Positions 7,575 to 53,305 of a stretch of DNA of 64,000 bases are shown here, in pieces. Location: assembly GCA_963667505.2 (NCBI GenBank), contig OY763490.2, positions 3,245,773 through 3,309,772 on the forward strand. The letters run 5' to 3'. A model generated the notes under the pieces. That model ran no database searches. It was not told where the DNA came from and saw only the letters and a list, made by a program, of their open reading frames with translations. The position numbers and the translations under genes are program-made. The stretch's first letter is position 1. Each line of letters starts with the position of its first letter. The DNA is from Acidimicrobiales bacterium. Its GTDB lineage: Bacteria; Actinomycetota; Acidimicrobiia; Acidimicrobiales; Aldehydirespiratoraceae.

Positions 7575-7596
7575 GCTGCCTCCCGTTGGGTTGTTG

Positions 7597-8884: not shown

Positions 8885-9865
8885 TCAGTGTCGGGCGAGA
8901 TCCCGGACAGCTGATTCGATGGCCGTCCGGTCGGGCACGATGGCCGACTCCAAGTGGGCCGCGAACGGGATGGGCGCCCTCGGCGCAGCCAGTCGACGGA
9001 CGGGCGCGTCGAGGGAGTAGAAGAGCTCCGACGCCGCCCATGCGCACATCTCCCCGCCCCAGCCGAAGTCTTGGACGGCTTCGTGTACGACGATCATCCG
9101 GTTGGTTCGCTGCACCGACTGCGCCAGTGACTCCCGGTCGTAGGGCCAGATGAACCGCAGGTCGATGATCTCGCAGTCGATGCCTTCAGCGGCGAGCGAC
9201 TCGGCCGCGGCGAGCGACTCGGCCACCATCCGTCCCGCGGTCACGACGGTGACGGACTCGCCACGCCGGGCGATGCGGGCGCCGTAGGGGTGGGCGGCCG
9301 CATCGCCCGGCCCGACCTCGCCGCTCTCGCGGAAGTACGAGTACTTGCTCTCGACGAACACCACCGGGTTGTCGTCTTGGATGGAGTGCCGCAACATCCA
9401 ATAGGCGTCCGGCACGGTGGAAGGCATGGCCACAACCAGGCCCGGCACGTGCGCGAACCAGGTCTCGAGATGCTGCGAATGCTGGGGGCCATGCCCGGTG
9501 CCGGCATCGGACGGCGTCCTGATGACGATCGGGACCGCCACCTGGCCGCCTGACATGTAGCGAAGCTTGGCCGCGCCGTTGACGATCTGGTCCATGGCGG
9601 TGGTGATGAAGTCCATGAACATGATCTCCACCACCGGGCGCAACCCCGCCATGGCCGCGCCGATGGCCCAGCCCACGGTCGCCGACTCGGCCAGGGGAGT
9701 GTCGAGCACCCTGCCCTCGAAGCTGTCAGCCAGTCCCTGGGTGGCGGTGAACACCCCGCCGAGAGCCTCTATCTCCTGTCCCATGACCACTACGGCGGGA
9801 TCGGACGCGAGCTCGTCGGCCAGGGCTTTGCGGATCGCTTCGGCGTACTTGATCTCACCAGCCAC
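8885..9865 (-). CDS. alpha-ketoacid/acetoin dehydrogenase E1 component beta subunit (transketolase-like)
   Basis: 326 aa. Motifs VVVMGQEI...RVLDTPLAESATVGWAIGAAMAGLRPVVEIMFMDF. GTG start overlaps the E1 alpha stop by 11 nt. Confidence 0.85.
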   Translation of the reverse strand: MAGEIKYAEAIRKALADELASDPAVVVMGQEIEALGGVFTATQGLADSFEGRVLDTPLAESATVGWAIGAAMAGLRPVVEIMFMDFITTAMDQIVNGAAKLRYMSGGQVAVPIVIRTPSDAGTGHGPQHSQHLETWFAHVPGLVVAMPSTVPDAYWMLRHSIQDDNPVVFVESKYSYFRESGEVGPGDAAAHPYGARIARRGESVTVVTAGRMVAESLAAAESLAAEGIDCEIIDLRFIWPYDRESLAQSVQRTNRMIVVHEAVQDFGWGGEMCAWAASELFYSLDAPVRRLAAPRAPIPFAAHLESAIVPDRTAIESAVRDLARH

Positions 9866-10892
9866 GCGACCGGCCCTCCTGCTCGAATGCCTCGGAGTAG
9901 ACGCCGGTCGTCGCGAGCTCCTCGGACGCCGCCCGTCCCTCGAAGGCGGTGTCCACCGCGTCGGCGATCTCCTGAGCGATCCGGTCGCGGACCGCGGCGG
10001 CCTCCGCCTCCGAAACCGGAAGGTCTCGTTCGGCGTTGGCGATCGGATCGTGGGTCTGCATGTGCGACTTGCCCAAGTCCCTCGGCAGGTACCGGTAGTC
10101 GGGATCGTTGAGGCTGTGGGCTCGCACCCGCCACACCTCGACCTCGAGGAACGCCGCCCTGCCCGTGGCGCGGACCTCGTCGATCATCTCGGCGGCGATC
10201 CGGTGCACCGCGAACACGTCATCTCCGGCGACGTACTCGGATCGAAGCCCGAAGCCCGCCGCCCAGGCGGCGATGGTTCCCGGCTCGCCAAAGGTGCGCT
10301 CCACCGGCATCGAATGGGCCAGATGGTTGTTCTCGCAGGCCACTAGCAACGGCGTTCCCCAGGTCCGCGCCATGCGCAGGGTCTCGGCCAGTACGCCCTG
10401 CGCCGCGCCGCCGTCGCCGACGAAGCTGACGGCCACGAGGTCCTTGCCCAGCCGCCGGGAGGCCCAGGCCGCGCCGGCGGCCCAGGGCACTCCGCCGGCG
10501 ACGATGGCGTTCTCTCCCAGGAACCCTGAGGCGATGTCGTGCAGGTGCATCGAGCCGCCCTTGCCGCCGGAGGACCCCTGCTTCAGGCCCAAAAGCTCGG
10601 CGACGATGGCCGCCGGGCTCATGCCTTTGGCGACGGCGTGGCCATGGCCCCGGTGGGTGGACGTGACCAGATCCGTCGGCCGGAGGCAGCCGATCACGCC
10701 CGCAGCCGCAGCCTCCTGTCCCATCGAGGAATGGAACGAACCGTGCATCCTCCCGGCGAAATGCAGCGCTTCGATGCGCGTCTCGAGCTCGCGGATGCGC
10801 ATCATGGTCTCGTAGAGCTCAAGGGAGCCCGAGGAGGCTGTCGCCACCGATGCTGGCTCGGGAGTTGCCGGCGCTTCGGAGCCGCCGGTCAT
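9855..10892 (-). CDS. TPP-dependent dehydrogenase E1 component alpha subunit
   Basis: C-terminal 345 aa of the 943-aa ORF. Motifs TSTHRGHGHAVAKG, GGKGGSMHL, VSFVGDGGAAQG, ACENN. The ATG at 10892 overlaps the upstream stop (ATGA). Confidence 0.85.
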   Translation of the reverse strand: MTGGSEAPATPEPASVATASSGSLELYETMMRIRELETRIEALHFAGRMHGSFHSSMGQEAAAAGVIGCLRPTDLVTSTHRGHGHAVAKGMSPAAIVAELLGLKQGSSGGKGGSMHLHDIASGFLGENAIVAGGVPWAAGAAWASRRLGKDLVAVSFVGDGGAAQGVLAETLRMARTWGTPLLVACENNHLAHSMPVERTFGEPGTIAAWAAGFGLRSEYVAGDDVFAVHRIAAEMIDEVRATGRAAFLEVEVWRVRAHSLNDPDYRYLPRDLGKSHMQTHDPIANAERDLPVSEAEAAAVRDRIAQEIADAVDTAFEGRAASEELATTGVYSEAFEQEGRSRGW

Positions 10893-12676: not shown

Positions 12677-12704
12677 CCGCTCTCATCGACTGGATCGGTC
12701 ATAC

Positions 12705-15835: not shown

Positions 15836-15920
15836 GATACGCATCCGACTTCGGGGCCTTCCAAGGGCAGGACGGCGGGCCGGGCTCGGCGACCCCTGGC
15901 TGCGAGGCGCGTCGGCTGTA

Positions 15921-17216: not shown

Positions 17217-17227
17217 GGAACGCGACT

Positions 17228-18643: not shown

Positions 18644-18744
18644 CTCTACGACGGCACGTCGTCCTCGAATGTCCGAGCGGACGGGCAGCCCTGCCGCAAC
18701 TCCACGACTGCCTGAAGGCTGTTCAAGAGCGAGACACGCGATGA

Positions 18745-18772
18745 TCTACTCTTAGGAAAGAGTCTCTACTCT
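18745..18772. promoter_or_regulatory. candidate operator in the MFS/gmaS divergent intergenic region
   Basis: Direct repeat TCTACTCT at 18745-18752 and 18765-18772 (20-bp spacing). It flanks the inverted repeat ACTCTT-AGGA-AAGAGT (18748-18763) in an AT-rich patch about 120 bp upstream of gmaS. Confidence 0.3.
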
Positions 18773-40373: not shown

Positions 40374-42410
40374 TCAGCGGTGCGACATCTGCGTGACGGC
40401 GTCCACGACCCGGGCTGCAGACGGAAGGTAGGCATCTTCCAGGGGCGGGCTGAAGGGCACCGGCGAGCGGGCCGCGGTGATTCGAGCCACGGGGGCGCGA
40501 AGCTGGTCGAACACAGCCTCTGTGATGGTGGCGGCAAGTTCGGAGGCCATGCTGCAGCCGGGCGGACTCTCGTCGATCACGACTGCTCGGCCGGTGCGCT
40601 CCACCGAGGCGGCGACAGTGCCCGCGTCGAGGGGCGACAGGGTCCGCAGATCGATGACCTCGGCCGAGGTCTGGTGCTCGGCCGCCAGCCGTTCGGCGGC
40701 TTGGACAGCCAACGGCACGGTCGCGCCGAAGGCGATCAGGCTCACGTCGTCGCCGCGGCGCTGCACCGCGGCCTTCCCGATCGGCAGCCCATAGCGTCCT
40801 TCGGGCAAGGGCCCGCGGGTGCGGTACAGGCCCATGTGCTCCAGGAACACGACCGGGTCGTTGTCGGCGATCGCCTGCAGGAGCAGGCCCTTGGCGGTAG
40901 CCGGAGTGGCCGGAGCCACCACCTTCAGGCCCGGAATGCTGGCGAAGATCTGGTGAAGCGTGTCGGAGTGCTGGCCTCCGGCCCGGAGCCCGGCGCCGGC
41001 CGCCATGCGCAGCACCACAGGCACGTCGGCCTGGCCGCCGAACATGTAGCGCATCTTGGCGGCCTGGTTGAAGATCTGGTCGAAGCAGTACGGGATGAAG
41101 CTGGCCCACATGACATCGACCACAGGCCGCAGGCCGGCCACGGCCGCCCCGACGGCTGCGCCCACGAAACCGGCCTCCGAGATCGGGGTGTCGCGGACAC
41201 GGGTGGGACCGAACTCCTCGATCAGGCCCTTGGTGGCGCCGAACGTACCGCCCATGGCGCCCTCCAGGGGGGCGCCGAGCCCGGCGCCGCCGGCGATGTC
41301 CTCGCCGAGAACGATTACACGGGTGTCGGCCCGCATGGCTTCGACCAGCGCTTCATGGACGGCCTGGAGATAGGAGCCCTCCCGCGCGGTCGTCGGCGGC
41401 TCGCGCGCCGGTTCTCGGTCGGGCCGCTCCTCGCTGATCACGTAGCGCTCGACTTCTGCCGGATCGGGCCAGGGCGCGGCCCGAGCGGCGCGGTAGGCGT
41501 CGTCGAGTTCGGCTTCGACCTCGGCCGTCAAGGCCCGGGCGTCGACGCCCGCGGAGCTGACCAGCCGCGCGACGGGGTCGGTGGCCCGAGCGGCGCGGCG
41601 CTGCTCGCGGGAACGGTAGTGCTCGGGATCGCCGACGTAGTGGCCGCGCATTCGCACGATCTTGGCCTCGACGAGGGTGGGGCCGTCGCCCCGGCGGGCT
41701 CGGTCGATGGCGGTTCCGGCCCCGGTGAGCACATCGAGGTAGTCCGACCCGTCGACCACCGCGGCGGCCATGCCGTAGGCCTGGGCCCGCACCGCTATGT
41801 CGGTGACGCTGGTGGCGTAGGCGGCGGGCGTCGACTCGGCCCAGCCGTTGTTCTCGCACACGAAGACCACCGGCAGACGCCAGATCGCGGCCAGGTTGAG
41901 TGACTCGTGGAAGATGCCTTGGTTGGCTGCTCCGTCGCCGAAGAACGAGACGGCCACCCGGCCGTCGCCGAGCACGCTGGCCGCCAGTGCCGCGCCGACG
42001 GCCAGCGAGATGCCGCCGCCCACGATGGCGTTCGCGCCGAGCACGCCCTTCGTGAAGTCGGCGATGTGCATTGATCCGCCTCGGCCCTTGCACAGGCCGC
42101 TCTCCCGTCCGTAGAGCTCCGACACCATCGCGGCGAGGTCGCAGCCCTTGGCGATGCAGTGGCCGTGGCCCCGGTGGGTGCTGGTGATGATGTCGTCTTC
42201 GTTCAGATGGGCGCAGACCCCCGCGGCCACCGGCTCGGCGCCGTGGTAGGTGTGAACGAAACCGGGCATGTCGCCCTTGGCGAACTCTCGGAGGACCCGG
42301 TCCTCGAACACCCGGATGCGCAGCATCGTCCGCAGTCCGGCCTCGAGCAGCTCCGCGGGCGTCCCCGGCATCACGGGCTGCGGGTCGGGCGGGCTCGGGG
42401 ATCGGTCCAT
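40374..42410 (-). CDS. fused TPP-dependent dehydrogenase E1 alpha-beta protein
   Basis: 678 aa. The N-terminal half has E1-alpha motifs (TSTHRGHGHCIAKG, GRGGSMH, VSFFGDGAANQG, CENN). The C-terminal half has E1-beta motifs (VIVLGEDI...RVRDTPISEAGFVGAAVGAAVAGLRPVV). Confidence 0.85.
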   Translation of the reverse strand: MDRSPSPPDPQPVMPGTPAELLEAGLRTMLRIRVFEDRVLREFAKGDMPGFVHTYHGAEPVAAGVCAHLNEDDIITSTHRGHGHCIAKGCDLAAMVSELYGRESGLCKGRGGSMHIADFTKGVLGANAIVGGGISLAVGAALAASVLGDGRVAVSFFGDGAANQGIFHESLNLAAIWRLPVVFVCENNGWAESTPAAYATSVTDIAVRAQAYGMAAAVVDGSDYLDVLTGAGTAIDRARRGDGPTLVEAKIVRMRGHYVGDPEHYRSREQRRAARATDPVARLVSSAGVDARALTAEVEAELDDAYRAARAAPWPDPAEVERYVISEERPDREPAREPPTTAREGSYLQAVHEALVEAMRADTRVIVLGEDIAGGAGLGAPLEGAMGGTFGATKGLIEEFGPTRVRDTPISEAGFVGAAVGAAVAGLRPVVDVMWASFIPYCFDQIFNQAAKMRYMFGGQADVPVVLRMAAGAGLRAGGQHSDTLHQIFASIPGLKVVAPATPATAKGLLLQAIADNDPVVFLEHMGLYRTRGPLPEGRYGLPIGKAAVQRRGDDVSLIAFGATVPLAVQAAERLAAEHQTSAEVIDLRTLSPLDAGTVAASVERTGRAVVIDESPPGCSMASELAATITEAVFDQLRAPVARITAARSPVPFSPPLEDAYLPSAARVVDAVTQMSHR

Positions 42411-42427
42411 CCGTCTGGGCCTCGTCG

Positions 42428-42676
42428 TCAGCCCGGGTCCGGCCCGGCGGCGATGACCCCGATGCGGGTGCCGATGGGGGCTTCGAGGCCCGGCTCGGCC
42501 TCATGGCGGATCAGGCCTGAGAACTCGGCCTCGATCTCCATCTCCACCTTGTCGCTCTCCATCACGAACAGCGGCTCGCCCGCTTCGACTTCGCCGCCGT
42601 CCTCGACGAGCCACTCGACCAGGGTGACGTCCCCCTCGTACATCCCCGTCTTGGGCAGGATCACCTCGCGGGTCAT
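42428..42676 (-). CDS. stand-alone lipoyl/biotinyl-attachment domain protein (82 aa)
   Basis: VEAGEPLFVMESDKVEMEIEAEFSG carries the lipoyl-lysine motif. No E2 catalytic domain follows. Confidence 0.75.
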   Translation of the reverse strand: MTREVILPKTGMYEGDVTLVEWLVEDGGEVEAGEPLFVMESDKVEMEIEAEFSGLIRHEAEPGLEAPIGTRIGVIAAGPDPG

Positions 42677-42720
42677 CGCCGGTGCATCCCCGTCTTGGGC
42701 AGGATCGCGGCGCCGGTCAT
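42673..42720 (-). CDS. repeat-encoded 15-codon mini-ORF (MTGAAILPKTGMHRR), proximal copy
   Basis: ATG at 42720. Its TGA overlaps the lipoyl-gene ATG (ATGA). Translation status unknown. Confidence 0.2.
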   Translation of the reverse strand: MTGAAILPKTGMHRR

Positions 42721-42764
42721 CGCCGGTGCATCCCCGTCTTGGGCAGGATCGCGGCGCCGGTCAT
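42717..42764 (-). CDS. repeat-encoded 15-codon mini-ORF (MTGAAILPKTGMHRR), distal copy
   Basis: The ATG at 42764 overlaps the GntR stop (ATGA). Its TGA overlaps the next mini-ORF ATG. Translation status unknown. Confidence 0.2.
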   Translation of the reverse strand: MTGAAILPKTGMHRR

Positions 42765-43462
42765 CGCTCGGGGCTAGGGCCAGCCGTGCGGATGGCGCCG
42801 TAGAGGATGTGGAGCGTGTCGGTCGTCAGATGGAGGTGCTGGCCCAGGACCTCGGCGAGTTCGTCGCCGCGGCGTTCCTCGCACAGCTCGACCATGCGCC
42901 GGTGCTGCTCGTCGGCCACGGGAAGGGCGGCCCCCCGGGTGAGCATCAGGTATCGCTTGGTCACCCCCCACAGCCGGTCGAGAGCCCTCTCGATGGTGGG
43001 CGTGAGGCCGGGGGCCAGCAGGACTCGATGGAACCGCTGGTGGGTTGCGATGTAGCCGGCGTCCATGGTTCCGGGCGTCTCGGCTGAGTTCTCCACATCG
43101 GCCAGGGCGGCGTGCAGAACCGGGATGTGCTTGTCGGGCATGCCCGCCGCGGCGCGCCGCGCCACCGGTGGCTCGATGAGGCGGCGCAGGTCGTACACGT
43201 CGGCGAGCTCGTCCAGCGAGATCCTGGTGGCCACCGCTCCCACGTTGGGCATTGTTTCCACCAGCCCCTCGGCCTGGAGCATCCGGATGCCCTCCCTGAT
43301 CGGGATGTGGGAGACCTGGAGGCGCCGCTCCAGGTCTCGGACATTGATGCGCTCGCCGGGGCCGATCGTGCCGTCGAGGATCAGACTGCGCACCTCCTCC
43401 GCGACGGCGTCGGGCACCGAGGTGGAGTTCTTCCTCGACTCGCGGCTGCCAGTGACGTTCAT
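42761..43462 (-). CDS. GntR/FadR-family transcriptional regulator
   Basis: 233 aa. wHTH region RINVRDLERRLQVSHIPIREGIRMLQAEGLV plus a helical FCD-like C-terminus. This is the C-terminal part of the 608-aa tracked ORF. Confidence 0.8.
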   Translation of the reverse strand: MNVTGSRESRKNSTSVPDAVAEEVRSLILDGTIGPGERINVRDLERRLQVSHIPIREGIRMLQAEGLVETMPNVGAVATRISLDELADVYDLRRLIEPPVARRAAAGMPDKHIPVLHAALADVENSAETPGTMDAGYIATHQRFHRVLLAPGLTPTIERALDRLWGVTKRYLMLTRGAALPVADEQHRRMVELCEERRGDELAEVLGQHLHLTTDTLHILYGAIRTAGPSPER

Positions 43463-43518: not shown

Positions 43519-44562
43519 TCATATCTCGGCTCCTGTGGCTCGACGCTCGAAGTATCTGCTGGTGGCGTCGAGGGCGGCCGCGGCCACGAGGGCGACGCCG
43601 GCGCTCACCCGGACCCAGAAGGGCTTGGCCCCGAGCAGCAGCAGCCCGTCGTTGAGCACGCCGATGAACAGCACCCCGGCCGCTACGCCGAGAAGGTTGC
43701 CCTTTCCGCCACCGAAGGCCACTCCGCCCAGCAGGATCGCGCTGAGCACCTCGATCTCGATCCCCTCGCCCAGGGTCGGGGGTGCCGAGTTGAGCCGGGA
43801 CACCAGCACCACGGCGCCCACGCCCGCGCCGACACTGCTGGCGATGTACAGCAGGAGAGGCAGCCGCCACAGGCTGATGCCGGCCCGGCGGGCCGCTTCG
43901 GCGTTCACGCCGAGGGCCATCATGTGGCGCCCCCACAGCGTCTTGGTGTGGAACAGCCCGCCGATGATGAAGATCGCCCCGGCGATCACCACCGGATTGG
44001 GAATGCCGACGCCGGGTAGTAGGCCCTGGCCGATCTCTTGGAACCCGCCGGTCCACCCGCTGGCCAGATCCCCGTCGTTGACCACGAAGGTGAGGCCCCG
44101 GACTGCGGTGTAGAAGCCCAAGGTGACGATTATCGGAGCGAAGCGCCCCAGCGTCGCCAGGGCGCCCTGGGAGGCGCCGACCGTGCCCGCCAGGAGGATG
44201 GCGACGACGCAGGCGAGGACGGGTTGGACCCCCGCCTCGAGCTGTTTGCCCAGAACGACCGCGCTCAGGCCGAGGGTAGACCCGACCGCGAAGTCGATGT
44301 AGCCCGACATCAAGAGCAGAGCCGTGGGCACCGCCATGATTCCGACCACGGCCACTTGCAGGAAGATGAGCCGGATGTTGGCCGTGGTCATGAACTTCTC
44401 GGACTGCGACCAGAAGAAGAGCACCTCCACGACAAGCGCGACGACGATGCCGTTCCTGAGGAACCCGGCTCGGACCCGGGCGAGCCGAGCCTCGGGATCG
44501 GCGCCCACCGCGCCCGCCGTGCGGACGCGCGGCTTCGTAGGGGAAGCTCCGGCAGTGCTCAT
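43519..44562 (-). CDS. ABC transporter permease (RbsC/BPD_transp_2 type)
   Basis: 347 aa with about 10 TM. Typical N-terminus ...NGIVVALVVEVLFFW.... Confidence 0.8.
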   Translation of the reverse strand: MSTAGASPTKPRVRTAGAVGADPEARLARVRAGFLRNGIVVALVVEVLFFWSQSEKFMTTANIRLIFLQVAVVGIMAVPTALLLMSGYIDFAVGSTLGLSAVVLGKQLEAGVQPVLACVVAILLAGTVGASQGALATLGRFAPIIVTLGFYTAVRGLTFVVNDGDLASGWTGGFQEIGQGLLPGVGIPNPVVIAGAIFIIGGLFHTKTLWGRHMMALGVNAEAARRAGISLWRLPLLLYIASSVGAGVGAVVLVSRLNSAPPTLGEGIEIEVLSAILLGGVAFGGGKGNLLGVAAGVLFIGVLNDGLLLLGAKPFWVRVSAGVALVAAAALDATSRYFERRATGAEI

Positions 44563-44611
44563 TCTGGTCGGGATCGCCTTGGGTCAAGAGCGGCCCGCGC
44601 CTGACTCGGGA

Positions 44612-45613
44612 TCAGCCGCCCGTGAACTCGGTGTAGGCGTCGAGGATCTCCTGGGCCCTCGCGGCGTCGTCCGGAGTCACCAGCTCGTAGGGCAGCTCCA
44701 GATTCGCCGTGGTGGTGCCCTCGACGATGTTGATGGGCAGATCGGCCACCGCCCTGCCCAGGTCGTCGAGTACGAGGGCGCCGCTGGCCCGGTAGATGCC
44801 GCCCTCGCCGCCGCCGGCAGCGAGGAGTTCGAGAGCCTCGTTCTGGCCGTCCATCCCGGCCACGAAGAACTCGCTGGCGTCGCGTCCCGCTCTCATCTGC
44901 GCCAGGACCGCCTGGTAGGCGCCTAGGGCGCCGGCGTCGTTGATGCCGATGATCATGGCGATGTTGGGATTGGACTGGAAGAACGTCTCGGTGCTGGTCA
45001 GGCCGGCGTCCTCGGCCACGACCTCTGCCTCGAGAGGAGCAACTCCGGTGGCCCCGACGATGATCTCCCTGATCGGATCAGTGCGCTGCGTGCAGGCCGA
45101 ACCGCACTGGTCGAAGGTGAACAGCACCCACGAGAAATCGTCGCGGTCGCCGGTGAAGTCCTCCTCCAGCCACCTGAGCGCCTCGTTCGCCACCTTCTCC
45201 GCGCCGGCCACGTTCTGGTAGACGATGGCTGCGTCGCCGTTGGGCACCTCGGTCGAGTAGCCGACGACGACGATTCCCTCCGCCTTGGCCTTGTCGATCG
45301 TCGCTTGGAGCGGTTCCACACCGCACAGTGGTAGGACCACGATGGCGTCCACCTGCTGGACGATGAAGTTCTCCACGTCTTGGACTTGCTGGTCGCAGTC
45401 GCCGTTGGCCGCGCCCTCGACGAACTCGTAGCCCCGTGACTCCGCCTGGATCCGGGCCGGCCCGGCCACGATCGGGTAGATACCGGCCGTCTCGTTGCCG
45501 TAGCTGAAGGCGATCGTCCCTTTGGACGAGTCGTCATCGCTGCCGCTGCAGCCGACAGCCAGCAGCGTCAGCGCCGCCAGCGCGGCCAAGAGACGAATGA
45601 AGCTTCTCGACAT
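44612..45613 (-). CDS. sugar-type ABC substrate-binding lipoprotein (RbsB-like periplasmic binding protein)
   Basis: Signal peptide and lipobox LTLLAVGCSGS. The ATG at 45613 is preceded by CAGGGGGA. The tracked ORF starts at 45640. Confidence 0.75.
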   Translation of the reverse strand: MSRSFIRLLAALAALTLLAVGCSGSDDDSSKGTIAFSYGNETAGIYPIVAGPARIQAESRGYEFVEGAANGDCDQQVQDVENFIVQQVDAIVVLPLCGVEPLQATIDKAKAEGIVVVGYSTEVPNGDAAIVYQNVAGAEKVANEALRWLEEDFTGDRDDFSWVLFTFDQCGSACTQRTDPIREIIVGATGVAPLEAEVVAEDAGLTSTETFFQSNPNIAMIIGINDAGALGAYQAVLAQMRAGRDASEFFVAGMDGQNEALELLAAGGGEGGIYRASGALVLDDLGRAVADLPINIVEGTTTANLELPYELVTPDDAARAQEILDAYTEFTGG

Positions 45614-45667
45614 GGGATCCCCCTGTGTTGTTTCGGTCACCGGATGGTGACGGTGATTGTGTGTCGA

Positions 45668-46516
45668 TCAGGCCGGCACGAGCGCGGGCATCGAGCGGTA
45701 GTAGTCGGCGTAGGAGACGATCTCGACGTCCATCTCCCTCGCGTAGGAGAGGAGGGCGCGGACCCACTGCGTCCCGGCCTCGTCGTAGCGGAGCATGGCC
45801 CAGTCGTGGAAGCAGGCACCGTAAACGAGGTCGTCGGCGACGATTTCGTCGATGGCGCTCCGCAGCACCCGGCCGAACTCCCGGCCCCGGTCGAGGCCGT
45901 TGGCCTCGAACCATATGCCGTCGAGCCAGTGCTGGAACGGGATCTCGAGGATGTCGGGATGCCCCTGCTCGGAGTACCAGAACGGCTGCGTCGAAATGGG
46001 CGTGGGGTTGCCCCCGTCGGGGCCGCGCCCCCATGAGCTCACGAACCGGATGCCGCACCGCTCGAGGATGTCGAGCAACTCGGGCCGGTCGCTCAGTCCC
46101 AGGTAGTGGCCGTGGGGCGTGCGCAGGCCGATGCACTCGACGCCGAGGTGCGTCTGTATGGCGGCCGACGTCGTCTGCAGCTCCGTCTCGAGCGCTTCGG
46201 CGGGCGAGGCTAGGAACACACCGCCGTTCCAGTAGTCGGGCTTGAAGAGGGCGTGGCTGTAGGTGTGCTGCTGGATGTCGATCAACGGATGGCGGACCAG
46301 ATCCTGGAACAGAGCGACGTGATGCACGAGAGTCCGGCCGCAAACGAATATCGTCGCAGGCGCATCGAACTCCTCGTGGTTTCGGAGTATCACTTCGATG
46401 CCCTTGGGGGTGGAGTCCGGCTCGATCGCCTGGGCCATCCCGTGATCGCCGAGTCGGGCGAGGCCCTCTCCTATGGCGAAAGACTCGACGTCGTAGCCGA
46501 CCAGAAGCTTCGCCAT
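45668..46516 (-). CDS. polysaccharide deacetylase (NodB homology) family protein
   Basis: MAKLLVGYDVE...ATIFVCGRT...IQQHTYSH. GGAAGGAG lies before the ATG at 46516. It sits between the ABC ATPase and binding-protein genes. Confidence 0.65.
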   Translation of the reverse strand: MAKLLVGYDVESFAIGEGLARLGDHGMAQAIEPDSTPKGIEVILRNHEEFDAPATIFVCGRTLVHHVALFQDLVRHPLIDIQQHTYSHALFKPDYWNGGVFLASPAEALETELQTTSAAIQTHLGVECIGLRTPHGHYLGLSDRPELLDILERCGIRFVSSWGRGPDGGNPTPISTQPFWYSEQGHPDILEIPFQHWLDGIWFEANGLDRGREFGRVLRSAIDEIVADDLVYGACFHDWAMLRYDEAGTQWVRALLSYAREMDVEIVSYADYYRSMPALVPA

Positions 46517-46564
46517 GAAGGCTCCTTCCTCGCGCTCTCTGGCTCTCTGCCGAACTGGCGAGAA

Positions 46565-46573
46565 TATAGTATA
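46565..46573. promoter_or_regulatory. TATAGTATA odd palindrome (candidate -10 element or operator), copy 1
   Basis: 9-bp AT-only-arm palindrome in the 106-bp intergenic region upstream of the deacetylase gene. An identical 9-mer occurs at 50479-50487. Confidence 0.3.
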
Positions 46574-46622
46574 GCTCCGGCTGCGGTACGGGAAAGTCGG
46601 ATGGGCCACTCGGCGGCGCCGC

Positions 46623-47369
46623 TCAGGCCGCGGCTCCCGTTGTGATGAGTTGGACGAGGTCCCGACTGGTTACATCGGCGAGTTCGATGTCAGCGACGGC
46701 CTCGCCGTGGCGCAGCACCACAACCCGGGAGCAGGCGTCGAGCACTTCCTGCATGTTGTGGCTGATCAGCACGACGGCGAGGCCGCGGTCTCGCAGCGTC
46801 CTGATGAGCTCTAGCACGAGGCGGGACTGCTCGACGCCGAGCGCGGCCGCCGGCTCGTCCATGAGCACGATCTGGCGTCCCCAGGCCACGGCCCGCCCGA
46901 CCGCGACGGCCTGCCGCTGCCCGCCCGACAGTTTCTCGATCGGGTGGCGCACTGAGCTGATGTTGATGTGCAAGCCCTCGAGGATCTTCTTGGCCTCGAG
47001 GTGCATGCGGCGCTTGTCTATCCACCCCGCGAGCCGAGGTCGGCGGGTGAGCTCCCGGTTCAGGAAGATGTTGCCGGTCACATCCAGCGTCTCGATGAGC
47101 GCGAGGTCCTGATGGACGGTCTCGATGCCCCGGTCGTGGGCGTCGCGTGGAGAGGCCAACTCGACGGCGGTGCCATGGATGAGGATCTCGCCCGCGTCGG
47201 GCTTGATGATCCCGGCGACGCACTTGACGAGCGTCGACTTGCCGGCGCCGTTGTCGCCGATCAGCCCCAGCACCTCCCCGGCCCGCACGCCGAAGCTCAC
47301 CTGGCGCAGGGCCTGCACTGCGCCGAAGGACTTGTCGATTCTGCGGACCTCGAGAACGAAGTCAGTCAT
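46623..47369 (-). CDS. ABC transporter ATP-binding protein (single NBD)
   Basis: Walker A GDNGAGKST, signature LSGGQRQAVAVGRA, Walker B IVLMDEPAAALG. Confidence 0.9.
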   Translation of the reverse strand: MTDFVLEVRRIDKSFGAVQALRQVSFGVRAGEVLGLIGDNGAGKSTLVKCVAGIIKPDAGEILIHGTAVELASPRDAHDRGIETVHQDLALIETLDVTGNIFLNRELTRRPRLAGWIDKRRMHLEAKKILEGLHINISSVRHPIEKLSGGQRQAVAVGRAVAWGRQIVLMDEPAAALGVEQSRLVLELIRTLRDRGLAVVLISHNMQEVLDACSRVVVLRHGEAVADIELADVTSRDLVQLITTGAAA

Positions 47370-48195
47370 GGCCGACGGTGACGTAGCCCTCGAGGGGCTG
47401 GATGAGGATTCCTCCGTCTACCGCGAGGAGCGCGCCCGTCACGAACTCCGCCATGTCAGAGGCCAGGAACACCGCGGCGCGGCCCACGTCGTCGGGCCGG
47501 CACAGGCGTCCGAGCGGAGTGCGGTCCACTATGCCCGCCCACTGGGCCTCAAGATCGATGCCTTGAGGGGCGCCGGCTTTGACGAACTCGATCGTGCCCT
47601 CGGTCATGGCCGCCCCGGGGCACACGGCGTTGACGCGGATGCCGTGGGGGGCTAGCTCCATGGCCAGCGACCGGGTCAGGCCCGCTATGGCGTGCTTGGA
47701 CGTCGTGTAGTGGGCCAGCCCTTCCGCCGAGGGCGCCTGGGCATCAACCGAGGCGACGTTGACGATGACCCCGGACCGGCGCGGCTTCATGCTGCGGGCC
47801 GCGGCCCGCGCGCACAGGAAGCCGCCCGTGACGTTCACGTCGATGATCCGAGCGAACTCGTCGCGGGGCATCTCGGTGGCCAGGTAGTTGGAGAACACGC
47901 CGGCGTTGTTGACCAGGACGTCCACGGGTCCGACTCGCGACTCGACGGCGTCGAACAGTGCTGCCACCGAGGCCTCCTCAGACACGTCGACGCGATGGCC
48001 GTGACAGGCTCGGCCGGTCGAGTCCGCCAGGCGGTCGGCCGTCGACTGGGCGGCTGCCTCGTTGATGTCGGCCACGGTGACGGCCGCGCCGGCCTCGGCC
48101 AGCCGGCGGGAGATGGCGGCCCCAAACCCTTGGGCCGCGCCGGTGACGATGGCACAGCGTCCCGCGAGCGACCACAGGTCCTCGAGGGGAGTCAC
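47362..48195 (-). CDS. SDR-family oxidoreductase
   Basis: TGAAQGFG, NNAG and YTTSKHA catalytic motifs. The GTG at 48195 overlaps the amidohydrolase stop (GTGA). The rest of the 680-aa tracked ORF is off-frame overlap. Confidence 0.85.
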   Translation of the reverse strand: MTPLEDLWSLAGRCAIVTGAAQGFGAAISRRLAEAGAAVTVADINEAAAQSTADRLADSTGRACHGHRVDVSEEASVAALFDAVESRVGPVDVLVNNAGVFSNYLATEMPRDEFARIIDVNVTGGFLCARAAARSMKPRRSGVIVNVASVDAQAPSAEGLAHYTTSKHAIAGLTRSLAMELAPHGIRVNAVCPGAAMTEGTIEFVKAGAPQGIDLEAQWAGIVDRTPLGRLCRPDDVGRAAVFLASDMAEFVTGALLAVDGGILIQPLEGYVTVGHD

Positions 48196-49517
48196 GGGAC
48201 GTGGCGCTCGAACCGAGCCGGCGCGTAGGGGCGGGCCTGCTCGAAGGGCATGCGTCGGGCCGGCGGGGCGTCGGGTCGCCACGGCCTGACCTCCCGCCCG
48301 CCCTTGACGACGCGCAGACGGCGCCGGTCGGCCAGCACCGCCACGTTCTCGTCGGGCCGTCCGTCGACGATCAGCAGGTCGGCGTACTTGCCCGGGGTCA
48401 GCGTGCCGATCATGGCCGAATGCGCCGGTGCTGCGACGGCCGCGTCGCGGGTCATGCACAACAGGGCTCGCATGTCGGTCATGCCGAGGTGACTGACGAA
48501 GAGCTCCAGTTCGCGGGTGTGCCACTGGCCATAGGGCGTCATGGCGAACCCGCTCTCGGATCCGGCCATCAGCGTGGCACCCTGCTCGTGGGCCTTGGAC
48601 AGGATGGACACGGCCGCGTCGAGCTCGCGCCGGATGGCGTCGTTGGCGGCGGGCCGCATGCCGCCGGCCTCGAGGGAGTTGACGAGCAGGGTCATGGCCG
48701 GCAGCAGCGGTATGCCTCGGGCCAGGACTCGGTCGAGGGTCTCGGTGTCCATGTAGGAGGCGTGCATGATCCAGTCGACTCCGGCGGCGGCCGCATCGGC
48801 GACGGACTGGCGCGACCGGGCGTGCATGGCCAGCGGGCGGCCGAGCCGGTGGGCCTCGCTGACCGCCAGTTCCAACTCGTCGAGCCGGAACGCGGCCCAC
48901 TCGGTGGTGCCCGGGCCGGACCCGGCGATCTTGACCATGTCCACCCCGTCCTTCACCTGGTCGCGTATCTCGTTCAAGAGCTCGTCCCGACCGCGGACGA
49001 GAGCGCCGAATGAGGACTCCTGGACGTCGATCCAGCGGGGCAGGGTGTCGCCTATGCCCTGCTGGGTGGTGATCTGCCTGCCCGCGGCCGAGAGCCTCGG
49101 GCCTTGGATGAGCCCGGCTTCCACCGCGTCGCGCACAGCCGAGGCGACTCCGGTCGGCCCGCCCGGGTCGCAGGCGCTGGTCACTCCGGCCATCAGGACC
49201 GTCTCGGCGCTGGCCGCCGCCCGGATGGCCCGGTACGGCGACGGCGTGTAGATGTAGAGCTCCTCCTCGGTCTGAGGCTCGCCGAAGCTGATGTGCATGT
49301 GGCCGTCGACCAGGCCCGGCATGACAGTGGCGCCGCCCGCGTCGTCGGTCGGGACCGTCTCGCCCCGGAACTCTCGGGGCAGGTCGCGCGATGCGCCGGC
49401 CCACGCGATCAGCTCGCCGTCGACCACCACCGTGCCGTCGTCGATCACGGTCTCATCGACGCATGGAAGCAGTCGGGCATTCTCGATGCGGCTCAGTTCC
49501 CGACCGGCCGCGCTCAT
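48192..49517 (-). CDS. amidohydrolase-superfamily metallohydrolase
   Basis: 441 aa with the MPGLVDGHMHI metal-binding motif. Confidence 0.8.
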   Translation of the reverse strand: MSAAGRELSRIENARLLPCVDETVIDDGTVVVDGELIAWAGASRDLPREFRGETVPTDDAGGATVMPGLVDGHMHISFGEPQTEEELYIYTPSPYRAIRAAASAETVLMAGVTSACDPGGPTGVASAVRDAVEAGLIQGPRLSAAGRQITTQQGIGDTLPRWIDVQESSFGALVRGRDELLNEIRDQVKDGVDMVKIAGSGPGTTEWAAFRLDELELAVSEAHRLGRPLAMHARSRQSVADAAAAGVDWIMHASYMDTETLDRVLARGIPLLPAMTLLVNSLEAGGMRPAANDAIRRELDAAVSILSKAHEQGATLMAGSESGFAMTPYGQWHTRELELFVSHLGMTDMRALLCMTRDAAVAAPAHSAMIGTLTPGKYADLLIVDGRPDENVAVLADRRRLRVVKGGREVRPWRPDAPPARRMPFEQARPYAPARFERHVP

Positions 49518-49611: not shown

Positions 49612-50466
49612 TCAGAACGGGACGAGCGGGAAGTACTCGCCCCCTATGGGATCTCCGGCAGCCAGCCCGAGTTCGGCGTCACTGTAGTTGTACTCGTAGC
49701 GCTGCGAGCCGAGCCAGACGGTCCCGTCGCCCACGAATCGTATGACGAGGGCCCGCCTCGGACGGTCGCTCCGGTTGGTGCCGGACGCGTGCCACACGAG
49801 CGACGAGTGAAGCGACACCTCGCCGGCCGCGAGGGCGAGCGTCCGGACCTCGAACCCCAGTTCGCGGGGATCCCCTATGGGCTTGACCGCAGCCGGCCGC
49901 TGGTCTCGGAGGTACGGCGTGCCCGTGCCGAAGACGGCGGGTAGACGCTCCCCGGCCAGATGGCTGCCGGCGGCCATGTGCATCGCGCCGTTGTGGGCGT
50001 CGGTGTCGTCCAGCGCCACCCAGGCCGTCACCGCGTTGGGCTGGGCCAGCGGCCAGTAGGGGAAGTCCTGATGCCATTTCAGCTCGCCCCCCGAGCCCGG
50101 AGCCTTCGTGAGGGCATTGTCCTCGAGGAGCCGCACCTGGCGGGCGCCGATGAGCTGGGCCGCCCAGCGGGCCAGAGTGGGGTTGAACACGAAAGCCCGA
50201 ATCTCGGGCTCCACCCTCCACAGATTGAACAGGAACTCGACGGGGCCCGCTCCCTCTGGCCTCGGTTCGTCAGTGTCGGGCCACAGGTCGGGGTCGAGCA
50301 GGTCGTAGAGCCGTCCCTCGCTGCGCTCGCGGTCCTGCACCGAGGCCACAAGGCCGCGGATGGCCTCGATTTCCTTGTCGCCAAAGACGCGGCCTGGGCA
50401 CAGGAACCCTGATTCGTAGAACTCGAAGATCTCAGGACCGGTGAGAGGATCGCCGCGTGAGGTCAT
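49612..50466 (-). CDS. phytanoyl-CoA dioxygenase (PhyH) family Fe(II)/2-oxoglutarate oxygenase
   Basis: WHQDFPYW (HxD) and distal VSLHSSLVWHASGTNRS. Start taken at MTSRGDPLTGPEIFEFYESGF (50466). Confidence 0.75.
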   Translation of the reverse strand: MTSRGDPLTGPEIFEFYESGFLCPGRVFGDKEIEAIRGLVASVQDRERSEGRLYDLLDPDLWPDTDEPRPEGAGPVEFLFNLWRVEPEIRAFVFNPTLARWAAQLIGARQVRLLEDNALTKAPGSGGELKWHQDFPYWPLAQPNAVTAWVALDDTDAHNGAMHMAAGSHLAGERLPAVFGTGTPYLRDQRPAAVKPIGDPRELGFEVRTLALAAGEVSLHSSLVWHASGTNRSDRPRRALVIRFVGDGTVWLGSQRYEYNYSDAELGLAAGDPIGGEYFPLVPF

Positions 50467-50509: not shown

Positions 50510-50977
50510 GTGTGCTGGCACACCGAGAGTGCGAGGCCTGTTTCGCACTCCCACCCGAGAGGCAGGCAGAACTTGGGAGAGCAAGTCGTTCGAGCAGACA
50601 CGACGGAGCCCGATGACTGGTCCGACACGGCGTTCGCGCATCTCGACGTGCGCACGCTGATCTCGGAGGACCGCCTCGGCTCGGAGAGGGTGATGGTGGG
50701 TCAGACCATCTATCCGCCCGGAAGCACCCACGAGCACCACCTCCACCCCGACGCGGAGGAAGTGGTGATTGTCATTTCGGGCCGAGGCTGGCACCGGGTC
50801 GGGTCGGAGTTTTACGACATCGGCCCGGGCGACATCGTCTTCATCCCGGCCAACGCTGCGCACTCCGCGGGCAGCGACCCCGGCGAGCCGATGGTCATAC
50901 TCTGGATCCTGGGCGGCGTCCCGTCGCTGGAGAAGGCCGGCTACGTGGCCGTTCCGACGATCCATCGAAGTCGTTGA
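50510..50977 (+). CDS. cupin-domain protein
   Basis: GSTHEHHLHPDAEEVVIVISGRG...GDIVFIPANAAHS. Start uncertain (GTG at 50510 or a downstream TTG). Confidence 0.65.
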   Translation: MCWHTESARPVSHSHPRGRQNLGEQVVRADTTEPDDWSDTAFAHLDVRTLISEDRLGSERVMVGQTIYPPGSTHEHHLHPDAEEVVIVISGRGWHRVGSEFYDIGPGDIVFIPANAAHSAGSDPGEPMVILWILGGVPSLEKAGYVAVPTIHRSR

Positions 50978-52494
50978 CCGAGCTTTGGCAACTGGGGGTC
51001 CGCGGTCTGGCCCGTCTCTACGGTGCCCGTCAGGCAAGCCCCGTGGAAGCGCTCGAAGCCTCACTTGATCGCATACGGGCGGTGGACGGGATGGTCGGCG
51101 CCTTCGCATGCGTGCTCGCCGAGGCGGCCTATGATGCGGCTCGCCGCCGGGAAGACGAGCTTGTCAGGGGGGTGGTCCGCGGTCCCCTTCACGGCATTCC
51201 CGTCGCCGTGAAGGAGCTGTTCGACGTCGAGGGCGCCCCAGGCGACTACGGGTCCGATGCGTTGTCGGGCCGGGTTTCCGCTGCTGATGCCGAGCTGGTC
51301 CGCCGGCTGCGGCGGGGCGGCGCGCTGATTGTGGGCACGACTCGCTCCCACGAGTTCGGATGGGGCATCACCACCCAGCACGAGCGAAGGGTCGGCACTC
51401 GGAATCCCTGGAATCTCGATCGCGTTCCCGGCGGGTCCAGCGGCGGCTCGGGCGCCGCTGTCGCCTCGGGGATGGTGCCGGCGGCCGTCGGCAGCGACAC
51501 AGGAGGCTCGATTCGCATCCCGGCCAGCTTCTGCGGAGTGTCCGGGCTCAAGCCCACGTTCGGCCGGGTCAGTCGCACGGGCGGGGTGGCGCTGGCGCCC
51601 TCGTTCGACACTGCGGGGGCGCTGGGCCGCACTGTCGAGGACGCGGCGACGGTGGTGGAGGCCATGAGCGGCGCCGACGGCGTCGACCCCGCGTGCCCGC
51701 CGGATCTGCCTATTGCGAGCGCAATCCCGGTGCCGAGTTCGCTGGACGGTGTTCGCGTCGGCGTCTCGGCCGACCTGATGGATGTGGGGCTGGATGCGGG
51801 CATCGAGGCGGTCTTCAAGACCGCGGCGGGCGCCTTGGAGGCACTGGGCGCCGAGATCGTGGAGGTTGCCCTGCCTGACGCCGAGTCGATCCGAGCATCG
51901 TTCGCGCCCCTTCAAATGGCCGAGGCCTACCACGTGCATCACCGGTCGATGGGTCTGTACCCGCAGCGGGCCGGCGACTACGGCGCCGACGTCCGCTCGC
52001 GTCTCGAGGCGGCGGCCGACGTGTCGGTGGGCGACTATCTGACCGCCCAGAAGGAGCGCGGCCGGATCGTTGCGGCTTTCGAGCGAAGACTCAGGTCTCT
52101 GGATGCCATGCTGAGCCCGGTCTCGGGGGTCGGGCCGAGTCGCGTCGATGACAGTGATCAGGCTGTTTGGAACGGTCGGGCTCGACCGCTGCGCGATGCG
52201 GTGATGATCTATACCGTGCCCAACAACATGACCGGGCTGCCGACCAGCGTCGTGCCCGTTGGAGTTGATCCGGACGGTCTGCCGGTGGGCGTCCAGTTGA
52301 TGGCCGAACGCTGGCGGGAGGACAAGGCTGTGGAGATTGGCGAGGCGCTGAGGCTGGCCGTCGAACCAGCCGTGGCGGCATTCCCCGAGCCCGGCGGTCG
52401 CTCCGGCGCGAGAACGGCAAGGCCGGAGTCTCGGAGGCATCCCGAGCCCGGAGGCGCCGGGGCGGCTCTTCCGGTCGGAACGGCAAGCGGATAG
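50974..52494 (+). CDS. amidase (amidase-signature family)
   Basis: GGSSGGSGAAVASG...GSDTGGSIRIPA. TTG start overlaps the cupin stop. Confidence 0.85.
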   Translation: MTELWQLGVRGLARLYGARQASPVEALEASLDRIRAVDGMVGAFACVLAEAAYDAARRREDELVRGVVRGPLHGIPVAVKELFDVEGAPGDYGSDALSGRVSAADAELVRRLRRGGALIVGTTRSHEFGWGITTQHERRVGTRNPWNLDRVPGGSSGGSGAAVASGMVPAAVGSDTGGSIRIPASFCGVSGLKPTFGRVSRTGGVALAPSFDTAGALGRTVEDAATVVEAMSGADGVDPACPPDLPIASAIPVPSSLDGVRVGVSADLMDVGLDAGIEAVFKTAAGALEALGAEIVEVALPDAESIRASFAPLQMAEAYHVHHRSMGLYPQRAGDYGADVRSRLEAAADVSVGDYLTAQKERGRIVAAFERRLRSLDAMLSPVSGVGPSRVDDSDQAVWNGRARPLRDAVMIYTVPNNMTGLPTSVVPVGVDPDGLPVGVQLMAERWREDKAVEIGEALRLAVEPAVAAFPEPGGRSGARTARPESRRHPEPGGAGAALPVGTASG

Positions 52495-52504
52495 GAGTTC
52501 TGGC

Positions 52505-53305
52505 ATGCCCTATGCACAGTCCGGCGACGCTCGGATCTATTTCGAGCAGCACGGCGAGGGTTCGGGCCCGCCCCTGGTACTGATACGGGGCACCGGCGCC
52601 GACGGGACTCGCTGGATGCCTCAGGTCGAGGCTTATTCGCCCGAAGTACCGTGTGTGATCTTCGACGGACGGGGCGTCGGCCGAAGCGAGACGACGCCGG
52701 CGCCGTACACGGTGGAGCAGATGGCCGGGGACACCCTTGCCGTGATGGATGCGGCTGGCGTCGATGCAGCCCACATTGCCGGCTCGTCGTTGGGAGGGGC
52801 CATCGGCCTCCACCTGGCCGTTCATGCTCCCGCTCGGGTGCTAACGCTGCAGCTGCACTCGAGTTGGCTGGCTACCCGAGGATTCTCCGCCTACTCGCTC
52901 GGCCTGCTGAAGAAGTTCCTCGTGACGGGGGGGACCGACTTCTACTACGAGGCGACCCTGCCGCTGCTGTTCAGTTGCTCCTTCATGATGGACAACTTCG
53001 AGGACCTCATGAAGATCCTTGCCCACATGCAGGCCAACTCCGCCACCAGGGAGGGGCTGCTCGGGCAGATCGAGGCCAATCTCAGCTATGACCTGAGCGC
53101 CGAGGCCGGGCGGGTGCAGGCACCCACCCTGATAACCGTCGGCGACCAAGACTATGTGCTGCCGGTGTCGTGCTCCCGGGAGCTTCACTCCGCCATCGAG
53201 GGATCGGAACTTGTCGTCTTCGAGGGCTGCGGGCATCTCGTCACGATGGAGAACTCCGAGGAGTTCAATCGGGTCACGCTCGACTGGCTGCGGCCGCACC
53301 TCTAG
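52505..53305 (+). CDS. alpha/beta hydrolase (enol-lactonase-like)
   Basis: HGEGSGPPLVLIRG, nucleophile elbow GSSLGGAIG, C-terminal GCGHL. Confidence 0.8.
   Translation: MPYAQSGDARIYFEQHGEGSGPPLVLIRGTGADGTRWMPQVEAYSPEVPCVIFDGRGVGRSETTPAPYTVEQMAGDTLAVMDAAGVDAAHIAGSSLGGAIGLHLAVHAPARVLTLQLHSSWLATRGFSAYSLGLLKKFLVTGGTDFYYEATLPLLFSCSFMMDNFEDLMKILAHMQANSATREGLLGQIEANLSYDLSAEAGRVQAPTLITVGDQDYVLPVSCSRELHSAIEGSELVVFEGCGHLVTMENSEEFNRVTLDWLRPHL

Follow-up and report, generated by a model that had tools for sequence, protein, structure and literature searches.

The window analysed here is a 64-kb stretch of the genome of an Acidimicrobiales bacterium (C1:3245773-3309772 of a 4.48-Mb assembly in 30 contigs). 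Two adjacent genes on its reverse strand are the subject of this analysis: one encodes a fused E1 alpha-beta dehydrogenase of 678 amino acids, dependent on thiamine diphosphate (ThDP), and the other a stand-alone lipoyl carrier of 82 amino acids (Table 1). In textbook 2-oxoacid and acetoin dehydrogenases, the lipoyl arm is borne by the E2 core; of this arrangement, the catabolic E1 described here keeps only the arm, in the form of a free 82-residue protein. The pair is a conserved, uncharacterised variant of the acetoin-dehydrogenase-type system.

The E1 and lipoyl carrier genes

The E1 protein comprises the Pfam domains E1_dh (residues 28-317, E 7e-74), Transket_pyr (347-530) and Transketolase_C (545-668), and this domain order makes it an E1 alpha followed by an E1 beta in a single chain. 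The carrier open reading frame (ORF) precedes it on the same strand, with 17 bases between its stop and the E1 ORF. Biotin_lipoyl is the only Pfam match of the 82-residue protein, GCV_H giving none, and no other protein of the window, lipoyl or biotinyl, has a Biotin_lipoyl match. Its ESDKV motif is the lipoyl signature and not the MKM of biotin, and its closest NCBIfam match is the N-terminus of AcoC (PRK14875). Both the 678-residue fusion and the free-standing lipoyl domain with its ESDKV lysine had been read in this way in an earlier annotation made from the sequence of the window alone, referred to below as the original prediction.

At 15 of 15 intact orthologous loci, the E1 gene is immediately preceded by the lipoyl gene, whose stop overlaps the E1 start by 4 bp in several of them, and neither an E2 catalytic domain nor an E3 gene was found within ±10 kb at any orthologous locus. 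The coupling of “E1 plus lipoyl carrier” is real and conserved. The original prediction had suggested an E1 plus carrier-protein system, and the 4-bp overlaps, the lipoyl fold, the invariant lysine and the lack of a tracking E2/E3 (see below) all agree with it.

An AlphaFold2 model of the carrier, computed from a 14-sequence alignment, displays an all-beta fold (pLDDT 87) in which strands 35-41 and 44-49 are joined by a turn that holds Lys43. Foldseek comparison yields TM scores of 0.78-0.87 to solved lipoyl domains, such as those of human pyruvate dehydrogenase L2 (3crk_C) and Escherichia coli E2p (1qjo). A lipoylatable fold, the lack of which had been named beforehand as an argument against the system, is thus predicted for the 82-residue ORF. 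Lys43 is invariant in 17 sequences, encompassing the orthologues, the cyanobacterial, chloroflexal and Thermus homologues, and AcoC N-termini. The aligned orthologues are 79-87 residues long and share 64-85% identity, while the median pairwise ratio of nonsynonymous to synonymous substitution rates (dN/dS) of 0.27 indicates that the gene is under purifying selection. The database relatives closest in identity to the carrier (44-59%, all-against-library search) are mostly stand-alone proteins of 76-130 residues. Its most identical long relatives are classical E2s of the lipoyl-PSBD-2-oxoacid_dh type (PSBD, the E3-binding domain), truncated lipoyl + PSBD proteins and one lipoyl-E1 fusion, and not AcoC. 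The 82-residue carrier looks functional, and lipoylation of Lys43 is predicted.

It is very improbable that this ORF is the decaying remnant of an E2, next to an E1 that works alone (e.g., as a lyase or carboligase) or within a unit that is non-functional. Signs of damage do exist: one related locus, L019, is visibly degraded, and in the present genome a 44-bp tandem duplication has struck the start of the lipoyl gene. The repeat consists of the duplicated first 12 codons of this gene and lies at its junction with gntR, where in orthologues the gntR stop just overlaps the lipoyl start. However, the duplication leaves the true lipoyl ORF intact, and decay is at odds with the narrow length range, the identity and the invariant lysine of the aligned orthologues, with a dN/dS of ~0.27 and a confident lipoyl fold, with an ORF that overlaps the E1 start in several orthologues, and with nearest relatives that are themselves stand-alone. 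To note, two upstream mini-ORFs (MTGAAILPKTGMHRR) arise from the 44-bp repeat.

Lineage of the fused E1

Ranked against annotated plasmid records, the fused E1 shares 47-52% identity with AcoA/AcoB (acetoin:DCPIP oxidoreductase), 37-44% with PdhAB and ~35% with BkdAB. In a 94-row tree, the 16 fused E1s group into a single clade (SH-aLRT support 100), nested in a group of support 99 that contains the proteobacterial AcoAB, an Enterococcus aco operon of lpd-E1-E2 organization, and SAR202 E1s. The choice between AcoAB, BkdAB and PdhAB, which the original prediction had left to a phylogeny, falls to AcoAB, and the fused E1 is assigned to the AcoA/AcoB lineage rather than to Pdh or Bkd. The ThDP-binding and catalytic residues are intact (GDG158...NN188, alpha His257, beta Glu412, beta His481) and are the same in 92-94 of the 94 sequences.

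The fusion itself is common and not special to this layout. More than 6,900 homologues are of a length comparable to that of the fused E1, and among the 120 matches listed, every one covering most of the query possesses both the alpha and the beta domains. A second fused E1, 719 residues long, is encoded in the same genome and is followed by a normal E2 (C1:2.206-2.210 Mb). Fused relatives elsewhere are accompanied by a canonical E2 (the Thermoflexus locus L098, and L100) or by no partner (L099). A link between fusion and the lipoyl-only state was considered and discarded, since fused E1s occur with a canonical E2 or with none, and lipoyl-only layouts mostly have split E1s.

In the sister clade of E1s, from SAR202/Dehalococcoidia (loci L023-L047), lipoyl and E2 genes alike are missing within 10 kb. 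Five of these loci harbor an alpha/beta hydrolase gene ~4 kb upstream, and many have a short-chain dehydrogenase/reductase (SDR) gene downstream.

The surrounding gene cluster

We searched the ORFs of the window, of 80 genome loci and of three metagenome loci with hidden Markov models of our own. The pair had been described as accompanied by nothing else; this does not hold, as the pair closes, on the 3' side, a catabolic cluster of several genes that is itself conserved. An intact fused E1 is encoded at 16 of these loci (the window and 15 orthologous loci, at 68-87% identity), and every one of them keeps the same cluster; the closest loci are from metagenome-assembled genomes of marine and sponge-associated Acidimicrobiia. 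Its order is alpha/beta hydrolase-amidase-cupin, divergent from PhyH dioxygenase-amidohydrolase-SDR-(ATP-binding cassette (ABC) importer/GntR)-lipoyl-E1, and the E1-lipoyl pair is the last step of this conserved pathway.

Table 1. Positions of the E1-lipoyl pair and cluster genes in the window, and of the other E1 and E2 genes discussed (C1, contig coordinates; aa, amino acids).
Feature	Position	Strand	Basis or context
Fused E1 alpha-beta, 678 aa, ThDP-dependent, AcoAB-type	40374..42410	-	Pfam, identity, tree, motifs
Stand-alone lipoyl carrier, 82 aa, Lys43 in ESDKV	42428..42676	-	Biotin_lipoyl E 4e-13
44-bp tandem repeat, 2.9 copies	42641..42767	-	Tandem Repeats Finder (TRF) score 226, 95% matches
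GntR/FCD-family regulator	42761..43462 (start approximate, alternative ATG 43522)	-	GntR + FCD domains
ABC importer block	43519..47369	-	Pfam
Permease	43519-44562	-	Pfam (importer block)
Binding protein, sugar-type	44612-45613	-	Pfam (importer block)
NodB-type deacetylase	45668-46516	-	Pfam (importer block)
ABC ATPase	46623-47369	-	Pfam (importer block)
SDR, conserved core gene	47362..48195	-	adh_short_C2 E 6e-62
Amidohydrolase_1, carboxypeptidase/ochratoxinase-like, conserved core gene	48192..49517	-	Pfam
PhyH-family Fe(II)/2-oxoglutarate dioxygenase, conserved core gene	49612..50466	-	PhyH E 4e-29
Divergent unit	50510..53305	+	Pfam, NCBIfam
Cupin	50510-50977	+	Divergent unit
Amidase-signature enzyme	50974-52494	+	Divergent unit
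Alpha/beta hydrolase	52505-53305	+	Divergent unit
Second, split E1 (beta 8885-9865, alpha 9862-10892)	8885..10892	-	Pfam; translations without stops
E2 domain adjoining lpd (housekeeping)	C1:906-908 kb		Follows lpd
E2 domain after E1 alpha + E1 beta	C1:2.871-2.874 Mb		
E2 domain after other fused E1	C1:2.206-2.210 Mb		
E2 domain within OdhA-like E1o-E2o protein, 1229 aa			E1_dh + 2-oxoacid_dh matches, no lipoyl match

In the subclade of the window, the ABC importer, the NodB deacetylase and the GntR regulator are inserted ahead of the lipoyl gene. The importer block is confined to this subclade (L005, L008-L013 and the window) and absent from L006, L007 and L014-L020; the orthologue of the regulator in L005 is 231 residues long. 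The divergent unit is present wherever the fetched flank of an orthologous cluster reaches, the flank of L005 ending before it. The SDR, kept in all intact orthologous clusters, scores above the cut-off of NCBIfam PRK07231, and its BudC/acetoin reductase matches fall below theirs.

The nearest solved structure to the PhyH dioxygenase is MysH (82 bits), those to the amidohydrolase are an unnamed variant (9kov), Xaa-Pro dipeptidase, amidohydrolase/amide hydrolase entries, the Arg carboxypeptidase Cc2672 and ochratoxinase, and those to the amidase are GatA/biuret hydrolase. Together with NodB and the sugar-type binding protein, these relatives suggest that the cluster imports a compound with several amide bonds, and the PhyH, amidohydrolase, amidase, cupin and NodB genes argue for a substrate other than acetoin. 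An attempt to name the substrate from the nearest structures failed, as the MysH, Xaa-Pro dipeptidase/Arg carboxypeptidase/ochratoxinase and GatA/biuret hydrolase types single out none.

MysH is the Fe(II)/2-oxoglutarate enzyme of mycosporine-like amino acid (palythine) biosynthesis. A PhyH gene (6949-7893) is also found upstream of the E1-lipoyl-SDR module of a Pleurocapsa locus, L046. The degraded copy of the cluster, L019:7677-11647, has suffered a deletion that runs from the cupin through the lipoyl gene and removes ~126 residues from the N-terminus of E1; this E1 is now 545 residues long, and the amidase and the alpha/beta hydrolase are still intact.

Comparison with acetoin dehydrogenase operons

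The proteobacterial acoXABC operons of Burkholderia sp. RPE67 plasmid p1 and of a Paracoccus pantotrophus plasmid (L088, L089) encode E1s of the same clade, with 48-51% identity to that of the window. Like the window cluster, they contain no 2-oxoacid_dh domain and no E3 gene, and have an adjacent SDR. The differences lie first in AcoC, a lipoyl + alpha/beta hydrolase protein, whereas the window carrier is a free 82-residue protein with no catalytic domain; second in the joining of alpha and beta in one polypeptide in the window; and third in regulation and gene content, as the window cluster has neither AcoX nor a sigma-54 regulator, has a GntR regulator instead, and is set apart by its PhyH, amidohydrolase, amidase and cupin genes, which point to a non-acetoin substrate.

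This likeness raises the alternative that AcoC is split here: the alpha/beta hydrolase of the divergent unit would unload the carrier, either as an acyltransferase of the AcoC kind, to coenzyme A (CoA), or as a thioesterase that frees the acid, and only the dihydrolipoyl dehydrogenase (Lpd, the E3) would be borrowed. The closest named relatives of the E1 do use an E2 made of lipoyl and Abhydrolase_1 domains without 2-oxoacid_dh, and the carrier finds its best NCBIfam match in the N-terminus of this very protein. Over its full length the hydrolase can be aligned with the AcoC C-domain, of which it shares the fold (29% identity, E 8e-21; GxSxG serine and C-terminal His in register); it scores 97 bits on positions 118-366 of PRK14875, and occurs at every orthologous locus whose flank reaches far enough. 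However, its scores on the RutD and PcaD models (142 and 141 bits) exceed that on AcoC, it is 29-32% identical to the AcoC C-domain, PcaD and RutD alike, and the tree displays no supported hydrolase-AcoC link (bootstrap 45, SH-aLRT 60). It is moreover transcribed divergently, with the amidase and cupin; at L019 it has outlived, with the amidase, the deletion of the lipoyl gene and the E1 N-terminus; no such hydrolase is found nearby in the other lipoyl-only clades; and the most identical long relatives of the carrier are classical E2s with a 2-oxoacid_dh core. A split AcoC is, on balance, unlikely. It was demoted to an alternative because NCBIfam, BLASTP, tblastn and the tree against AcoC, PcaD and RutD revealed no specific affinity of the hydrolase.

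E2, E3 and E1 genes in the genome

A genome-wide scan returned four 2-oxoacid_dh and four Pyr_redox_dim matches, none of them inside the window, and the statement of the original prediction that the 64 kb hold neither an E2 catalytic domain nor an E3 stands. Each of the four E2 domains already lies beside its own E1 or lpd (Table 1). The single canonical lpd adjoins the housekeeping E2 (C1:~904.9-908.1 kb), ~2.4 Mb from the pair.

Among the other genomes with the carrier, G078/G158 and G154 have two E2 catalytic domains only, which in two of them are just the housekeeping E2 and the OdhA-like protein; genomes of the window's own family without the carrier (G038, G111) likewise have two. Comparison of E2 counts in carrier and non-carrier genomes, together with the contexts of the genome's own E2s, thus identified no dedicated canonical E2/E3 that tracks the E1-lipoyl unit; the existence of such a pair had been named beforehand as an argument against the system. 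A dedicated E2 located elsewhere was dismissed on the same grounds, the four E2s being already partnered and the carrier genomes G078/G158 and G154 having no extra E2 domain. True orthologues are patchy, being present in 2 of 150 sampled genomes of the order, too few for a presence/absence correlation.

The genome contains eight sets of E1_dh-type genes, as against four E2 catalytic domains and one canonical lpd. The second, split E1 of the window was correctly described as being without an E2, E3 or lipoyl gene, and it adjoins hydantoinase A/B. It constitutes a system separate from the fused E1: its long branch in the tree is well removed from the latter and falls among proteobacterial E1s with a canonical E2. 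Its region (8885-18745) also encodes hydantoinase B/A (10889-14762), a diaminopimelate-dehydrogenase-like protein, a luciferase-like monooxygenase and an ABC importer. Contig C15 ends in a further orphan E1 pair, and another, at C1:607475-609459, is accompanied by genes for an M24 peptidase and dehydrogenases.

Recurrence of the layout and related systems

The association of an E1 with a free lipoyl protein is not restricted to this cluster, and the lipoyl-only state needs at least 5-6 origins on the 94-row E1 tree. A Pleurocapsa/Chloroflexota/Anaerolineae clade combines E1 with a stand-alone lipoyl protein, an SDR always coming after them, and a Pirellulales variant (L042:11957-12454) has a 165-residue lipoyl + PSBD protein. 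The megaplasmids of eight Thermus thermophilus strains carry acoA-acoB, a gene for an 82-residue lipoyl protein and a TRAP transporter. The Burkholderiaceae genome L070, with a 277-residue ORF, is possibly a further case. A second E2-less module is present in the genome studied here, ~24 kb past the right end of the window (C1:3333400-3335822), and is composed of E1 alpha, E1 beta and a 91-residue stand-alone lipoyl protein with a VETEKV motif.

Beside this second module are found an SDR, an Mch-like protein, a flavin reductase and a Rieske oxygenase. Intermediate forms also exist: L042, P0214 and P0197 represent proteins of 165-266 residues with lipoyl and E3-binding (PSBD) domains and no catalytic core, and in P0210 the lipoyl domain is fused straight to E1 alpha.

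The T. thermophilus trio (L090) assembles an AcoAB-like E1 and, after it, an 82-residue stand-alone lipoyl protein with an ESDKA motif, which the records name “hypothetical” or “biotin/lipoyl-containing”; the annotated stretch shows neither E2 nor E3. It differs from the window pair in its split E1, in its independent origin (a long separate branch) and in its neighbours, among them the TRAP transporter. To our knowledge, this trio is uncharacterised. The example at L090:3980-6170 is from plasmid pTF24b of strain TF24, and the same arrangement is found in 7 other strains.

Two well-studied systems share part of this logic. In actinobacterial OdhA/KGD, the lipoyl groups are those of E2p (AceF/DlaT), provided in trans (PMC10415282, citing Hoffelder et al. 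2010): the phylum is the same, the lipoyl group is on a separate polypeptide and Lpd is shared. There, however, the lipoyl domain sits in a full E2p, whereas in the window it stands alone as a mini-protein, its gene accompanies that of a catabolic E1, and it has no assigned acyltransferase. The glycine cleavage system (P, H, T and L proteins) likewise employs a small free lipoyl protein shuttling without a structural core. Its carrier belongs to GCV_H and not Biotin_lipoyl, its P protein depends on pyridoxal phosphate and not on ThDP, and its catalytic parts are non-homologous, so that the likeness is one of working only. A full-text literature search yielded no account of an E2-less E1 with a free lipoyl carrier in catabolism, only OdhA trans-lipoylation and biosynthetic systems of the QncN/L/M type.

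The layout is thus less unusual than it first looks, because acoXABC operons lack E3 and 2-oxoacid_dh and because E1 with a stand-alone lipoyl protein recurs. In this respect the original prediction overstated the oddity: aco operons (L088 and L089 included) ordinarily do without an E3 gene, AcoC has no 2-oxoacid_dh domain, OdhA uses lipoyl groups in trans, and outside this clade the fusion does not accompany the lipoyl-only state. What stood of it is the E2-less carrier unit itself, which is real.

Such recurrence bears on a further alternative, in which the acyl-lipoyl group is passed to an unrecognised acceptor (an amine, water by way of another hydrolase, or an unlinked transferase), or in which the carrier acts only as a two-electron acceptor while the acyl-ThDP is hydrolysed on E1. 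The E2-less layout, with its multiple origins, is stable across phyla; lipoyl + PSBD intermediates without a core (L042, P0214, P0197) and the lipoyl-E1 fusion P0210 are on record; the SAR202 relatives lack both a nearby lipoyl gene and a nearby E2; and E1 gene sets outnumber E2 domains eight to four in this genome. Conversely, apart from the SDR, the lipoyl-only clades have no candidate enzyme in common, known E1 chemistry gives an S-acyl-dihydrolipoyl product that needs a transferase, and the simpler borrowing in trans is open in every carrier genome. This alternative is considered unlikely; if true, it would represent a new lipoate-dependent reaction scheme.

Proposed mechanism

From the gene content, the PhyH dioxygenase and the SDR would turn the imported amide-containing substrate into an acyloin, a diketone or a 2-oxo intermediate. 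The fused E1 would then cleave or decarboxylate this intermediate and pass the acyl group reductively to the lipoyl group on Lys43 of the carrier, a step proposed because the E1 is of the AcoAB family with intact catalytic residues, the carrier has a predicted lipoyl fold, and the two genes are tightly coupled. The carrier would behave as a diffusible shuttle, as does the H protein of glycine cleavage, and be reoxidised by the sole canonical dihydrolipoyl dehydrogenase of the genome. Finally, an acyltransferase domain acting in trans would move the acyl group from the carrier to CoA, the likeliest being that of the housekeeping E2 or of the OdhA-like E1o-E2o protein. These are candidates because the E1 and acyltransferase of actinobacterial OdhA work on lipoyl groups of a separate polypeptide (PMC10415282). 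Borrowed housekeeping partners are the most likely explanation of the missing components. Of the steps proposed, loading of the carrier by the E1 and recourse to Lpd in trans are on firmer ground than recourse to an E2 in trans; the whole scheme, in which the E1 loads its own carrier, Lpd reoxidises it and an acyltransferase is borrowed, may equally be right or wrong on the sequence data at hand.

Several points weigh against the borrowing of an E2. The cluster provides no PSBD-bearing partner for the E1, and tethering to a core is not evident. A free lipoyl domain that is foreign to an E2 core is a kinetically unfavourable acyl donor to it. The conserved hydrolase of the PcaD/RutD/AcoC group in the cluster offers an alternative unloading route, and independent recurrence of the layout suggests a self-sufficient design over casual borrowing. 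Another option is a core-free lipoate system for C-C cleavage that would work like glycine cleavage: the E1 would load the mini lipoyl protein, an enzyme other than an E2 (the alpha/beta hydrolase of the cluster or some partner yet to be recognised) would release the acyl group, and only Lpd would be shared. Such a system is tentatively kept as the less probable option, next to borrowed housekeeping partners.

Significance

The main interest of the pair lies in the recurrent E2-less layout with a free carrier and in its acyl-release step. Should the housekeeping E2 and E3 be borrowed, the pair would show how new substrate-specific E1 modules are attached to existing machinery, extending the OdhA precedent. 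If the carrier is instead unloaded without an E2 core, the reaction scheme would be new for lipoate, and the core-free system would amount to a general, undescribed way of plugging catabolic E1s into lipoate redox chemistry, its layout having evolved repeatedly, among others in Chloroflexota, Cyanobacteria, Planctomycetota and Thermus. The equivalent module of T. thermophilus provides a culturable model for an E2-less E1 with its carrier. As for the surrounding cluster, it represents an uncharacterised pathway of marine and sponge-associated Acidimicrobiia, acting on a putative amide-containing compound.

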